The notes under the pieces are model-generated. The model was not told where the DNA came from. It made no database searches and worked only from the letters and a program-made list of their open reading frames with translations. The translations under genes and the position numbers were made by a program. This document shows positions 2,047 to 9,611 of a DNA stretch of 37,750 nucleotides, in pieces. Origin of the DNA: Raillietiella orientalis (Eukaryota); NCBI GenBank assembly GCA_036172245.1, contig JAYWIR010000184.1, forward strand, positions 1 to 37,750, in the 5' to 3' direction. The first letter of the stretch is position 1. Each line of letters opens with the position of its first letter.

Positions 2047-2560
2047 TTTTATTAATGAAAAGGTTACAACACTACATTTTTAATGAAAGGCTGTGGCTCT
2101 GCCTTATCTTGCAATCCTTTCTTGATACCTTATCCAGTGAATTTTAGTGTTCAGACTCTGGTGGTTGAGCATCTAGGAACTCCAGTGGGTTGGCGGCATC
2201 GTCCGCTGGATGTCCTAAGCGGTGCGTCCAGTAGATGTCTCTACTGCATCCAATAACAGAAGATACCATAATTTTTCTCATCTTAGTGGCGAATTTTCTA
2301 GAGATGCCTAAGCTTTTGAGGTCTCCATCATTTTTGGGGTCCCGTGATCCTAATGCTGCAACAATAAAGGCGTGCACTTCGACCTTCATTCCTCCGCGGG
2401 ATAAAAGCGCGGCAATCTCTCGGTATTTGTTTTCCTTCTTCATTCTGTTAGTAAAGAATGCCTATTCCCCATTCTCAAAAGGGCATGTAACATCGATCAC
2501 CACCATTTTCAGAGCTTTTTGGAGACAAAATCTGGTCAAAGTGCCGAGTTAGTCCCTGGA
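2047..2560 (-). mobile_element. 5'-truncated Utopia/NeSL-like non-LTR element: REL endonuclease C-terminus plus 3' UTR
   Basis: VVIDVTCPFENGE, KENKYREIA, FIVAALGSRDPKND, MRKIMVSSVIGCSRDIYWTH; homologous to 9002..9514. The 3' end TTGTAACCTTTTCATTAATAAAAA matches 9590-9611. Confidence 0.9.
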
Positions 2561-2590
2561 ACTTTGATCTTAGCCAAAAGGCCGAGAAGC
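2561..2590 (-). ncRNA. U2: U2 snRNA 5' fragment (~nt 4-33), not a full gene
   Basis: Reverse complement reads GCTTCTCGGCCTTTTGGCTAAGATCAAAGT, the conserved U2 5' end. It is fused directly to the truncated Utopia-like copy. Confidence 0.92.
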
Positions 2591-4159
2591 AAGTCCTGCG
2601 AGTTTTACTTGCAGGAAAGAGTCGCAGTGTGGAACGCGTTTCTGGCTTTCCTCCTCCGCCCCCTACTTTCTGTGTGTTTCGCTCCACCTTAAGTCAAGAC
2701 AAGGGCAAGGGCAAGGGGACTCCTCAGAAAAGCCGTGTGAGGCACACGGAGGTCCCCGGTCCGTCTGAAAGATTTGTGCGCTTCATGCAGGGTGGTGGAC
2801 TAGTGTTCCTGACGATGGAGAGCATGGAGCGTCAGCTCCAAATTAGCAAACTCGCAATTACAGCGAGGTTATGGACAACGCCTTGGTGCGTCCCCACACG
2901 CCTGCTTGCTAGCAGAGCGACCGGCTGCAACGGATTGACTTCAGTTCTTGTGGTTTACCCCAGCAGACTGAACCATCTTGGTTTTCAGCTGCGTGACCTG
3001 GTTGCCTTGGTGAAAGAGAACACGTGAATCTCCTGCCTCTCTGCAAACTGCATTTGTTGGCTTCAGGAGTCAGTTTCCGCGTGGGCTAAGATCTGCGGCT
3101 CTAGCGATTCGAAGTACCCATGCCTCCGTAGAGGCGTGTACACTAGAAAACCCCTGCAGGAGATCGTTTCCAGCCCACGGAAACTACTGTAAACCTCATT
3201 TACCCCCCCTGTCCCCACGCTGCCCTTCCTGAAGAACGCTGGGGACAGCCAGGAGGAGGCATCGCGAAAAGTGTCCTGCCTCTTTGGAAGCAGGAAAAAA
3301 CTCGTGAAGGCGTGTACATCTGGGGAGCTAGGGGCGCTGCAACCCCGAGTGTCCCGCCTAAAGGACTTGTGCGCTGGGGTGAGTTGCTCGGAATACCTCC
3401 GTAGGAGGTGAAGTGACCTCCAGCGCTATGGGACAGTGGCACCCTTTTCTTGGATACGCAAGAGACGGCGCTGTTTGTGTGGCGTTGGAGACTCCTTCGC
3501 AGAGTACGCCTCTCCCGTTGGACCCTTGGGAGTGTAGATACCAATTGTGCAGGTTGCGGGAACAAAAAACCTTCCTTCACCTAATCATCGAGTGTGTCGT
3601 CCTCCGCCCAATGTGGAATCGACTATTGTCGATTCCGAACATTCCGGATGGCGACCCCAAAAACATTCTCCTTCGCCTCCTGATATGAGGCACCCTGCCA
3701 GGAACTGCGTGTGTTGCAGTTCTCTGTTGCATATGTGGAATCCTGGATAAGTTGGCTGCTTCAAAGAGGAGCTGCAGCAGCCGAAATTTCATTTAGTAGG
3801 CCGTCATATCCATTAATAAGGTTTCCCGATGGCCCTGGCTGAGAAAAATTTTACCGGCATTCGTCCACATCCAAACTCGAATGTAGAAAACCCCTCGCAG
3901 CGAACTGTGATCCCTTTTCTTCCCTCATTTCCTCGTAAAACATTACCCTCCCCTTCGTGTTTTTGTTGTTTCTGTGGTTTACCTCTTCCCCTTTGCAAGC
4001 AAAGAGGACCTCATCCGGCTTAGGGCCAATAAACACAAGTGTTACAAGACAGGCACAATCACGCGTTATGCCTGAAAAACATGCGAAGACTTTATTATGG
4101 AATTTTTTTTGTTAAAATTTTAATAATAGATGCCCCTGCATATTCGGGAGAAAAACCAG

Positions 4160-6430: not shown

Positions 6431-8068
6431 CGATAGAAGCATGCAAACCTTACGAAGAAAATCATGTGGAGCAGACTGCTTCTTCCACCTTAATTGGAAT
6501 TTTCGTGGACTCCATTTTCATAAGAAAAAAAGCCACAATGCACAAAGAAATACAGTCCAAAAATTCCTAATCGGAGCAGTCACATTGTACACCTGAATTC
6601 AGGAAGGGAGGAGGCCGCTTTCGAAGCTGCTAAACCATGGGACAATACTCGAAGTGAAAAGACAGAAGTCTTCCGTGGTAGCAATTGGATCGGCGAGGGA
6701 AGGGCAGCAGAGCTGCATAAGTTTGGGGATCCCAACAGTTCTGGACTTTAAATACTTCGGTGTACTGTTAGAGCATTATTTCATGGCGATGACGTGGTCC
6801 AGCTAAGTTCAGAAGGCACATTCGGCGATTCCTTGTTCCGGGACGGCATGTTTTTCTTGTCGGAAACGGGCGGGATATGAAACACCTTCGTGTCCCCTGT
6901 TTCTAACCCTGTTTTCAGCTGGAGGTCAGTCAAGCAGCATAACGAGGCGGAGGAAGAACCTACTGAAAAGTGCCTTGCGGAACAAAAGGATGCTTCGAGA
7001 CCACCTGGAGGGCTTGTGCTCTCCTCGCTGCGACAGAGGCCTCAGTCTTTTGTCGCTCGAACAACTTCTCCGCAAGAGACACTCACCTTAGTGGCAAAGA
7101 TGTGGAGCACCAACTGCTACCAGCTTACACAACACATAATCATGCGAGCCCTCAGCTACGCGGGACTGTACTCGTCCTTGGCATGCCGGTGTAGATGTAA
7201 CATATCCAGCTGCGAAGTGGTGATTCGGCAATTGGGAAAGCTGACCAAAGCAAATTCCTGGGTTTCCTGATGGCCCGCGAACAGTAGTGCCTGTCTGCAG
7301 CAAACCGTTTGATGCTCTATCCAAATGGTCATAAACCCAGAAGAACGAGGTAATCCGGAAGATGTGACAGCTGTCACAACAACCGCTCGCTTCAGGTTGT
7401 CATCGTGCAGGCTATTACGCGTGCGAGAGCAGAAAAGACCTCCGTAGCAGCGGCACTGCTATATTCCAAGAGGTACCTGTTCTGCAGTCAGCAGGCCAAA
7501 TGGAAGGAACAATGTAAGATCGTTGGAAAGCCGAAGGAGTTAAGTGCTAGGACTACGGGCCAGCTAACGGAAGCTGAGACCCCAAGTACCCCACCGGAGG
7601 GAATACTGTGCTGAGGCAAGCAGCTCAAAATCTTGCATAAAGTCCTCGAATGTCCCCCAGCGCTGAAAAACAATCAGGGCCTTCCTCTGAAGTGGCAAGA
7701 ATCGGCAATTCTGCTGCTGCACTGGGGCATCTCGTGCAACGACCACCGGTCTCACTGCTGCTTGGGAGATGTAGGCCAGCACTGTGGCAGGTGCGGGTGG
7801 CGGAAATTCCTCCAGCACTAGCATATAGACTGCGTTGCCCTCCAGCCTCTCTGGCTGAGTTTCACATTTGACTAGGTGTATAAACAAACCCCGGAGACGT
7901 CTTTAAGCGTCTCTTTGTGCGCCATATCCTTTCGCCCGCCGCGTTCCAATCAGCTCTTTGCTGCCTACGGGGGATTGTTACGGTCCTGGAGCTTTGCACA
8001 AAAAGGATGTTAAGAAAGGGACGCCATCTGCTTGATCATGCGCTTTCTGAAACTGCATCAAAGGTACC

Positions 8069-8098
8069 CTACTCGGCCTCTCGACTAAGATCAAAGCG
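8069..8098 (+). ncRNA. U2: Degenerate U2 snRNA 5' fragment
   Basis: CTACTCGGCCTCTCGACTAAGATCAAAG (8069-8096) matches U2 CTTCTCGGCCTTTTGGCTAAGATCAAAG at 24/28. It directly precedes the Utopia-like ORF. Confidence 0.8.
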
Positions 8099-9611
8099 TT
8101 TCGGAATCCAAGTATTCCCCAATACTCCAACAAAAGAACAAATGGTTGCCAAAGCAAGTCAGATTTTGAACTCTGGCCTCTCGCCTTGGCAAAAGATGGA
8201 TGCCTTAAGAACATTTTACTTTCCAAGCCTGGTCCATTTCCAAAGGCTGGGCACCCATCAGAAACAGGAATGGAAGTTTGTTGATCGGGACATACGCAAA
8301 AATATTAAGGAATTACTTCATCTCCCATCAAGAGCAGCAAAAGAATTTCTTTATGGTGATCGGAAAATGGGATGCATGGCGTTGATGCGGCTGTCGGATG
8401 AGGCGGACACCTTCATCATAGATAGTTGCTTCAAGCTCCTTTCATCCCACGATGAGTCAGTCTGCCAACTTGCCAAGAATTCCTTACGTGAGGAAGTGCA
8501 AAAAAGAATTCTGCAACTACCCACGGAAGAAGACATGGCAACGTTCATGAATGGTGACTGCTCAGATAAATTCTCAAGAACTGCTGGCGATATAAAAAGC
8601 AAATGGACTACAGGACGTCAAGCATCTTCCCGGATGCATGCAACTTGGAGTTTTGAAGATCAAGAACTCAAGCTCCAAGTAGGAGACCTATCCTTCAACT
8701 CCAGGATGCGCAGAAGAATCACTGTTGCGATTCGCGATGCACAAAGGCATCAAGCATGGCTCGACCTCATTAATAAGCACCCTGATCAAGGAAAAGCCAT
8801 GCGATGTGTTGGACTGCATCGCGCATCAAGCTATTTCTTAAACAACGGGGATTATCTACGATTTGCTGACTATCGCTTCATCCACGCCGCACGGTTAAAT
8901 CTTGTACCCTTAGGGGTGTAAATAGAAGACCTGCTGCGGAAAGAAGCTGCAGTAGGTGTACCCTCCGAGATGAGACGTTACCTCATGTACTTAATCACTG
9001 CATGAGGCACTCTCGTCTCTACACTGCTGGTCACGATGAAATCGTAAGACGCTTAACTAAGGCAGCTGTTGAAGTTGCTGGATGGCAGCTTTTGTCAGCA
9101 AACCAACCCATAAGAGGAAGTGAGAGCTCGCTGCGACCGGACTTAGTCTTGCAAAAGGCTAACTCCGTCGTTGTCTTGGATGTTTCTTGTCCGATCGAGA
9201 ACATGGAAGAAACCTTCGTTACAACTAGAAAGGAGAAGGAGGACAAGTACCAAGATATCGTCCAATTCTACAGAAGGAACGGATGCAGCGCCGAAGCCCG
9301 TGACATTCTGGTTAACTCTCTTGGATCATGGGATCCAAGGAATAATTCAGTTTTGAAACAATTGAGAATCCCCCGTCGTTATTGCGACCGGATGCGCAAG
9401 CTGATGGTCGCATCCTGCATACAATTCAGCAGGGATATCTACTGGACGCATCGTCTAGGGCATCCTGCCAGTGATGCTCTATCCAAATGGCCAGAAACTG
9501 AGGAACTCCAATAAGCTGTCCTTGTACATGGGCCCAAAGAAAAAGATAAGGAGAGACATCAAAGCACTCCAGCAAATTTGTACTTTGTCTTGTAACTTTT
9601 TCAATAAAAAA
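8099..9611 (+). mobile_element. 5'-truncated Utopia/NeSL-clade non-LTR retrotransposon (RT thumb region, CCHC finger, REL endonuclease, 3' UTR)
   Basis: SGLSPWQKMDALRTF, HPDQGKA, FADYRFIHAARLNLVPL, CSRC...ETLPHVLNHC, LRPDLVL...LDVSCP...KEDKY (PD-D-K nuclease), LGSWDPRN, SRDIY. One frameshift near 8920; stop at 9514. Confidence 0.93.

Follow-up and report, generated by a model that had tools for sequence, protein, structure and literature searches.

How could two fragments of a retrotransposon come to lie outside any U2 small nuclear RNA (snRNA) gene and each carry, directly in front of a truncated 5' end, a ~30-nucleotide (nt) piece from the 5' end of U2? The question is raised by a contig of Raillietiella orientalis (assembly GCA_036172245.1, contig JAYWIR010000184.1, positions 1 to 37,750 of the forward strand), a stretch of repeat-rich eukaryotic DNA with 47.7% G+C content that is referred to below as the window. 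The fragments, termed copy 1 and copy 2, resemble Utopia, the U2 snRNA gene-targeting non-long-terminal-repeat retrotransposons of the NeSL clade that encode a restriction-like endonuclease (RLE) (Kojima & Jurka 2015, PMC4640811). Our favored answer, to which we give about an even chance of being right, is that both inserts are retrocopies of chimeric RNAs initiated at the U2 promoter of truncated Utopia insertions in U2 genes, the U2 leader having been moved by 5' transduction.

U2 positions are numbered on the protostome (fly) form, with nt 40 as the first base of TCTGTTC, the canonical 3' flank of Utopia and Keno. The U2 23-mer CTCGGCCTTTTGGCTAAGATCAA, searched with up to three mismatches, matched exactly twice in the 37.7-kb window, at 2564-2586 on the minus strand (no mismatches) and at 8072-8094 on the plus strand (three mismatches); none of 100 shuffled sequences yielded any match. 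These matches lie in two U2 pieces, cap 1 and cap 2, which abut copy 1 and copy 2, respectively (Table 1). The caps start at U2 nt 4 (copy 1) and nt 5 (copy 2), possibly at nt 1-2, and so near the 5' end of the U2 RNA, and their last U2 bases are nt 33 and nt 32, respectively. With its three A's, GATCAAAG has the protostome form, which S1 Fig in PMC4640811 shows for the U2 of fly and C. elegans. Upstream of cap 1, the seven extra bases AGGACTT may represent mutated U2 nt 1-3 plus untemplated bases. In both copies the junction between cap and element is direct, with Utopia protein homology reaching the cap and neither filler nor 5' untranslated region (UTR) in between (read by eye for copy 1).

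Both U2 pieces in the window are joined to its only two RLE fragments. The 23-mer search placed no U2 piece on any of the several L1-like fragments of the window and revealed no unoccupied U2 fragment. A permissive Rfam scan of window positions 1-12000 (E up to 10) had a single hit, a U2 match at 2511-2593 on the minus strand (29 bits, E = 0.012, under the gathering score of 46) that was well aligned only over the first ~31 model positions, and it detected no U2 body after either copy. The initial annotation of this DNA had described both RLE elements as starting right after ~30 nt of U2 5' sequence, with no U2 body following, and both statements are borne out.

Copy 2 is the longer and better preserved of the two fragments. 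It consists of two open frames, P0001 and P0002, parted by one frameshift near 8870-8920, and reads through 471 codons without a stop before its stop codon at 9512-9514. The two frames align to a full-length protein of 1,211 amino acids (aa) from Ixodes scapularis (P0012) at aa 750-1029 and 1038-1208, with 36-39% identity. The Utopia-derived part starts at about aa 760 of P0012, whose Pfam reverse transcriptase (RT) domain ends ~30 aa earlier, at aa 728, so that copy 2 was truncated just before the thumb. Its motifs (CSRC...HVLNHC, RPDLV, LDVSCP, and RKEKEDKY) comprise a CCHC knuckle and the RPD...D...E.K motifs of the nuclease, and P0002 could be aligned with an R2 protein of solved structure (9nl2_A, E = 2.4e-8) over the RLE region of the latter. 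Copy 1 (2195-2524, minus strand) aligned in tblastn to P0002 aa 94-203, with 53.6% identity (E = 1.35e-36), and because the match is limited to this segment, its truncation falls inside the nuclease domain. The differing truncation points proposed in the initial annotation are thereby confirmed. By eye, copy 1 has decayed, with two stops and one frameshift. Since protein identity is 53.6% and blastn between the two copies gave no match, copies 1 and 2 represent separate lineages. They have in common a conserved 3' terminus of ~30 nt, TTGTAAC.TTTTCA..AATAAAAA, which lies at about 2050-2080 in copy 1 and 9582-9611 in copy 2 and contains AATAAA.

The C-terminal CCHC and PD-(D/E)xK restriction-like nuclease are thus present in copy 2, with the distal half of the nuclease in copy 1, and the RT is lacking from both. 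Ticks and a dragonfly, Ladona fulva, supplied the closest named relatives of copy 2 (32-43% identity). An exhaustive profile-free search collected 917 relatives, the top identity being no more than 51%, and a word-index search with the thumb region returned just one hit. No Pfam family was found in 13 open reading frames (ORFs) of the 1-11 kb region, which include the RLE and flank ORFs; their domains are either too diverged or not modeled. Table 1 of PMC4640811 names both Ixodes scapularis and Ladona fulva among the hosts of Utopia. From these comparisons, both copies are RLE fragments of the R2/NeSL/Utopia type, and their nuclease, their relatives, and the link to U2 point to Utopia.

The insertion site of copy 1 could be read against an uninterrupted relative elsewhere in the window. 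In a self-comparison of the window, positions 1470-2048 and 2598-3951 matched adjoining parts of one L1-like relative, and we refer to the interrupted sequence as element A. A three-way alignment defined a 9-bp target site duplication (TSD), GCRAGTTTT, with its left copy GCAAGTTTT at 2041-2049 and its right copy GCGAGTTTT at 2598-2606. In the orientation of the element, this TSD encloses the seven extra bases, cap 1, and the Utopia fragment, the A-rich end of which overlaps the TSD. Because the TSD brackets both parts and element A is contiguous across them, copy 1 and its cap constitute a single insert. No U2 sequence lies 3' of copy 1, where the next bases are AAAACTTGCC. The nick on the primer strand was GTTTT^A, and TTTT/A is the consensus of L1-type nicks (PMC4476161). 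Copy 1 combines the 5' part of an snRNA with a 5'-truncated long interspersed element (LINE) in the same orientation, one TSD, and an L1-type nick, and it was probably integrated in trans by L1-type machinery with an apurinic/apyrimidinic endonuclease (APE). In the relative of element A, the 505-aa RT frame hits Pfam RVT_1 and has human L1 ORF2p as its best PDB match, and an APE-type nuclease domain lies in a neighboring frame at 31679-32197.

At copy 2, the left flank is a second, more diverged L1-like element (element B), similar in tblastx to 35416-34049 and 30280-29873 and in blastx to the ORF2 C terminus (reference aa 25-73 and 89-144 of 166). At the DNA level, the 3' part of element B resembled neither of the two further L1-like elements. 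Immediately downstream of copy 2 stands the heptamer TATCTGT, which occurs only twice in the window, both strands counted. Placed with the U2 rows and Utopia 3' junctions in S1 Fig of PMC4640811, it falls exactly at the canonical U2 nick, between nt 39 and 40, and the copy 2 nick reads ACAGA^TA. Copy 2 was probably integrated by a Utopia-type RLE that nicked this U2-like heptamer, as judged from the bases at the junction. No TSD was found around copy 2 (656 of 2,000 shuffles scored equally well). To its right, a possible tail of the element B ORF2 was considered, and its weak protein similarity was equaled by 262 of 5,000 shuffles.

The initial annotation had placed both copies inside L1/Tx1 ORF2 sequence that resumes on the other side. 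For copy 1, the alignment to the relative and the TSD establish contiguous L1-like sequence rather than a decayed U2 gene; for copy 2 the claim stands on the left and, given the shuffles, is no more than possible on the right. The evidence supports calling the flanking elements L1-like with an APE-type endonuclease, and Tx1 would be no more than a possible assignment. The echo of U2 in TATCTGT, also pointed out there, is a match to the U2 bases that span the canonical nick. The region that holds the relative of element A, 29400-37500 on the minus strand, is itself made up of nested L1-like pieces, with an RT frame at 34310-35824, the APE domain, and a zf-RVT-like C terminus at 29804-30301; the relative appears interrupted between ~33600 and 30800.

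Junctions near U2 nt 33 are not confined to the window. One of 165 fetched relatives contained a translation of the U2 leader: P0099 (isoform P0166), assigned to Plectus sambesii by UniRef, is a gene model of a full-length RLE (Utopia-like) element in which the peptide SLLGLLAKIKV corresponds to U2 nt 2-34/35 and is followed by the element, the junction thus lying at nt 33-35. A second regular-expression match, P0102, had LAKIK internally and was rejected as a cap. Such a peptide search cannot detect most caps, because most short database fragments begin at an internal Met. In metagenome contigs, we also looked for loci where U2 nt 8-33 give way to a non-U2 base and obtained 15 (Table 1); being limited to junctions at nt 33, the scan speaks to the existence of such junctions and not to their frequency. 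In two of these loci, L002 and L009, the first open frame of the element reads through the U2 leader (RFSAFWLRSK). The L1-like elements of the window have just 32-36% identity over ~80-100 aa to these two elements, and we do not claim them as Keno. At L005, a (CAAG)n microsatellite immediately precedes U2 nt 1, and the element common to L005 and L012 could represent another U2 leader carried to a non-U2 site. In L004, the intron-like insert ends with TTTCAG and U2 resumes with GTGTAGTATCTGTTC, indicating an intron-bearing U2 gene; resumption was seen in L004 only. The intron-like inserts of L004, L010, and L014 lie in the part of U2 where Utopia and Keno have their 5' junctions. All matches to TAAGATCAAAG in S1 Fig of PMC4640811 are reference U2 rows, and protostome-type 5' junctions are not given there as text.

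Table 1. Features of the copy 1 and copy 2 inserts and their flanks in the window, followed by the metagenome loci in which U2 nt 8-33 are followed by a non-U2 base (positions within each locus).
Feature	Position	Strand	Description
L1-like element A, left part	1470-2049	+	blastn match to uninterrupted relative at 35774-35186, 74.8% identity
Utopia-like copy 1	2050-2560	-	Last ~115 codons of RLE domain and 3' UTR; 3' end ...TTGTAACCTTTTCATTAATA(AAAA)
Cap 1	2561-2590	-	U2 snRNA nt 4-33; 30/30 identical to protostome-type U2 consensus; abuts copy 1 (read by eye)
Seven extra bases, AGGACTT	2591-2597	-	Between TSD and U2 nt 4 (from alignment to uninterrupted relative)
L1-like element A, right part	2598-5500	+	blastn match of 2598-3951 to 35193-33843, 71.2% identity; tblastx onward to ~5498
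L1-like element B	6624-8068	+	RT to near ORF2 C terminus, several frameshifts; left flank of copy 2
Cap 2	8069-8096	+	U2 snRNA nt 5-32; 24/28 identical, 4 mismatches; abuts copy 2 (read by eye)
Utopia-like copy 2	8097-9611	+	Post-RT 'RFG' motif, CCHC zinc knuckle, RLE domain, 3' UTR ending CAATAAAAAA
TATCTGT	9612-9618	+	U2 nt 38-44 (fly numbering), spanning canonical Utopia/Keno nick; followed by non-U2 sequence
Possible ORF2 tail of element B	9619-9710	+	Stop at 9708-9710; in frame with left flank if 8068 is joined to 9626; weak similarity
L002	1722-5017	Reverse strand of locus	ORF1 and ORF2 with APE and RT right after U2 nt 33; Keno-like, not Utopia
L009			ORF1 and ORF2 with APE and RT right after U2 nt 33; Keno-like, not Utopia
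L006			Element start as in L002
L011			Looks akin to L002 and L009 (by eye)
L005	772-2048		581 nt of unclassified element after U2 nt 33, in common with L012; upstream sequences of the two unrelated
L012	2640-3246		581 nt of unclassified element after U2 nt 33, in common with L005
L004, L010, L014			Intron-like insert (GTAAGT...) between A31 and G32 of U2
L003, L007, L008, L015			Apparent U2 sequence variants
L001, L013			Downstream sequence too short to classify

Starting from the observed anatomy, the junction positions, and the TSD and flank continuity of copy 1, we infer source loci, promoter use, and machinery as follows. A Utopia-like element would have integrated, 5'-truncated and in sense orientation, into a U2 gene, with a 5' junction that falls at nt 32-33 of U2 and thereby a few bases 5' of the nick at 39|40; a sense orientation in U2 genes is that seen for Utopia in S1 Fig of PMC4640811. 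The intact U2 promoter upstream would then transcribe a U2(1-33)::truncated-Utopia RNA ending at the terminal AATAAA region, and reverse transcription of this chimeric RNA would finally create a copy at an ectopic site. L1/APE-type machinery acting in trans was probably responsible for copy 1, as the TTTT/A nick, the 9-bp TSD, and the A-rich 3' end suggest; for copy 2, a Utopia-type RLE would have nicked the U2-like heptamer. Because the two copies show two different nick types, the cap seems to belong to the template RNA itself, which would imply a chimeric RNA formed beforehand. The caps start at nt 4-5 (possibly 1-2) and have L1-like ORF2 sequence upstream, so that they represent the 5' end of an RNA rather than a gene with its promoter. 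The transduced piece would extend from the host transcription start to the element junction, since the caps span U2 nt 4/5 to 32/33 and the element junction lies at nt 33-35 in P0099 and at nt 33 in L002 and L009. Of the two mechanisms offered in the initial annotation, chimeric transcripts from the U2 promoter fit best, because the caps start near the U2 5' end and end at nt 32/33 like U2-adjoining elements elsewhere, and because of the two nick types; an RT jump onto the U2 leader ranks lower. That annotation took into account neither the apparent L1-type mobilization of copy 1 nor the possibility that the Utopia element of copy 2 struck an older, truncated U2 retropseudogene.

Several observations weigh against 5' transduction of a U2 leader. 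With 4 of 28 positions changed, cap 2 is more diverged than a body with 471 stop-free codons would lead one to expect. Whatever single post-insertion divergence is assumed, the joint probability stays at or below 0.002, so that either a degenerate U2 source or a cap older than the body is needed. The L1-type reading of copy 1 comes from one nick and one TSD. The metagenome scan saw nt 33 only, and the elements found there are APE-type, not Utopia. In addition, snRNA promoters are not known as sources of long polyadenylated RNAs.

Template switching would dispense with the chimeric transcript. An RT copying Utopia RNA, either an L1-type enzyme in trans or Utopia's own, would leave its template at a broken or paused point, land on mature U2 snRNA at about nt 29-33, a single-stranded purine-rich stretch, and run to the U2 5' end, producing a chimeric snRNA/LINE retropseudogene. 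Chimeras of an snRNA with a 5'-truncated LINE are documented, switching or priming can start internally on snRNAs, truncations cluster in single-stranded purine-rich segments, and 57 of the 58 characterized human U2 copies are 3'-truncated (PMC4476161). Recurrent short U2 5' additions on crocodilian SINEU elements have been credited to a template switch (PMC4494074). The L1-like nick and TSD of copy 1 suit such an origin, as does the perfect cap 1 (30/30) on a decayed Utopia part. Jumps onto free U2 RNA would, however, have to account for U2 pieces on both of the two RLE fragments and on none of the several L1-like fragments, for landing points (nt 32 and 33) that coincide with the U2/element junction in P0099, L002, and L009, and for the same switch position under two different integration machineries; cap 2, moreover, has diverged too far for functional U2 RNA to have been its recent template. 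We therefore regard template switching as unlikely.

The divergence of cap 2, far greater than that of the near-intact 471 codons, is as expected if the U2 piece were the older part. In such a two-step history, a 3'-truncated U2 retropseudogene (~nt 1-44) in the L1-like element would later have been hit at the canonical site by a 5'-truncated Utopia, with deletion of nt 33-37. Copy 2 does lie between U2 nt 5-32 on its left and nt 38-44 (TATCTGT) on its right, astride the canonical nick, and truncated U2 retropseudogenes abound in the presence of active L1-type elements (PMC4476161). This history fits copy 2 only: copy 1 has no U2 downstream, its 9-bp TSD holds cap and Utopia together as a unit, and its Utopia 3' end abuts the TSD. 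Furthermore, the window offers no unoccupied U2 fragment, the GGCAACC that follows TATCTGT is unlike the T-rich nick of L1-type elements, and no TSD was found around the unit, so we consider the two-step history doubtful. It is also conceivable that both copies mark decayed U2 gene loci, the normal home of Utopia (PMC4640811), into which Utopia inserted and to which L1-like sequence came later. For copy 1 this is contradicted by an element A that is contiguous across the insert and has a TSD, and for copy 2 it is made unlikely by the L1-like ORF2 that reaches cap 2; neither copy has a U2 body within the scanned 1-12000, so that decayed loci appear exceedingly improbable.

Chimeric transcription from the U2 promoter could be extended to a more general scheme, which we put forward as a distinctly improbable conjecture. 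Utopia RNAs made from the U2 promoter would retain U2 nt 1 to ~33, unprocessed, as a leader that is part of the transposition intermediate, and truncated U2-resident copies would act as non-autonomous elements driven by that promoter and spread by both Utopia and L1-type enzymes. This would amount to a life cycle similar to that of short interspersed elements (SINEs) with an RNA polymerase II (Pol II) snRNA promoter, the leader possibly guiding 5'-junction formation at U2 targets.

Two further features of the window were noted away from the inserts. At 24797-24915 on the minus strand, a diverged 5S rRNA-like sequence covers the full model length (Rfam 44.8 bits versus a gathering score of 38) and is the sole hit at the gathering threshold; in its repeat-rich surroundings, it could be a 5S pseudogene or the head of a 5S-derived SINE. 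Positions 13947-15709 and 16933-18359 are connected by three colinear inverted matches (69-83% identity) and form an imperfect inverted repeat of ~1.8 kb per arm.

R2 RNA undergoes ribozyme processing. Utopia and Keno live in low-copy Pol II snRNA genes, and ectopic copies with U2 nt ~1-33 would be fossil evidence that the RNA of such an element starts at U2 +1 and that its leader is left untrimmed. They would also show that dead U2-resident copies can still seed insertions. The transcription of these elements is not addressed in the main text of PMC4640811, where 'promoter', 'read-through', and 'chimer' do not occur, and the Utopia 5' junctions given there are putative cleavage sites only, deduced from target-site alterations. 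Full-text searches on Utopia or snRNA-gene retrotransposons together with co-transcription found no paper on U2-leader-bearing ectopic copies. The ingredients, namely, 5' transduction, co-transcription of site-specific elements, and snRNA/LINE chimeras, are already known. For annotation, the two inserts serve as a warning that short U2 5' fragments beside RLE tails are not ordinary U2 pseudogenes. If template switching were true instead, the smaller point would be that snRNA/LINE chimeras extend to an RLE element.

Set against described Utopia elements, the fragments agree in the CCHC knuckle and PD-(D/E)xK nuclease, in having relatives in Ixodes scapularis and Ladona fulva, in the physical link to U2, and in the AATAAA 3' end. 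Behind copy 2, this end gives way to U2 bases from past the canonical nick, as part of TATCTGT and then non-U2 sequence, whereas copy 1 has no such U2 bases. Ectopic Utopia copies with short U2-like junction motifs are reported from crocodilians (PMC4640811). The fragments differ from described Utopia in that the 5' part of U2 alone accompanies 5'-truncated copies to non-U2 sites.

As in 5' transductions and host-promoter co-transcripts, host sequence from the promoter start site to the element would head the offspring copies. Co-transcripts of this kind are formed by R2 with 28S rRNA and by SLACS and CZAR with the spliced-leader gene. Among 5' transductions, SVA with MAST2 is an example cited in PMC4494074. 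Unlike in known 5' transductions, the host unit here would be a U2 snRNA gene and the carried piece is only ~30 nt long.

The inserts also recall Groups IV and III of Doucet et al. 2015 (snRNA/LINE chimeras and 3'-truncated snRNA retropseudogenes; PMC4476161), in which an snRNA 5' part is joined to a 5'-truncated LINE in the same orientation; U2 is likewise present as a heavily 3'-truncated piece, and copy 1 further agrees in its TSD and TTTT/A-type nick. In contrast to those chimeras, the LINE partner is an RLE element native to the U2 gene and not the mobilizing L1-type element, the position of the fusion is that at which such elements meet the 5' part of U2 elsewhere, and copy 2 has a U2-type nick without a detected TSD. 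SINEU, the SINEs with U1- or U2-derived heads (Kojima 2015, PMC4494074), offer a last comparison, since they, too, are non-autonomous retroelements that are mobilized in trans and begin with a short piece of U2 5' sequence. Whereas SINEU form families with a shared structure and a non-LINE body, the two inserts described here are single, differently truncated coding fragments, each with its own junction to U2.

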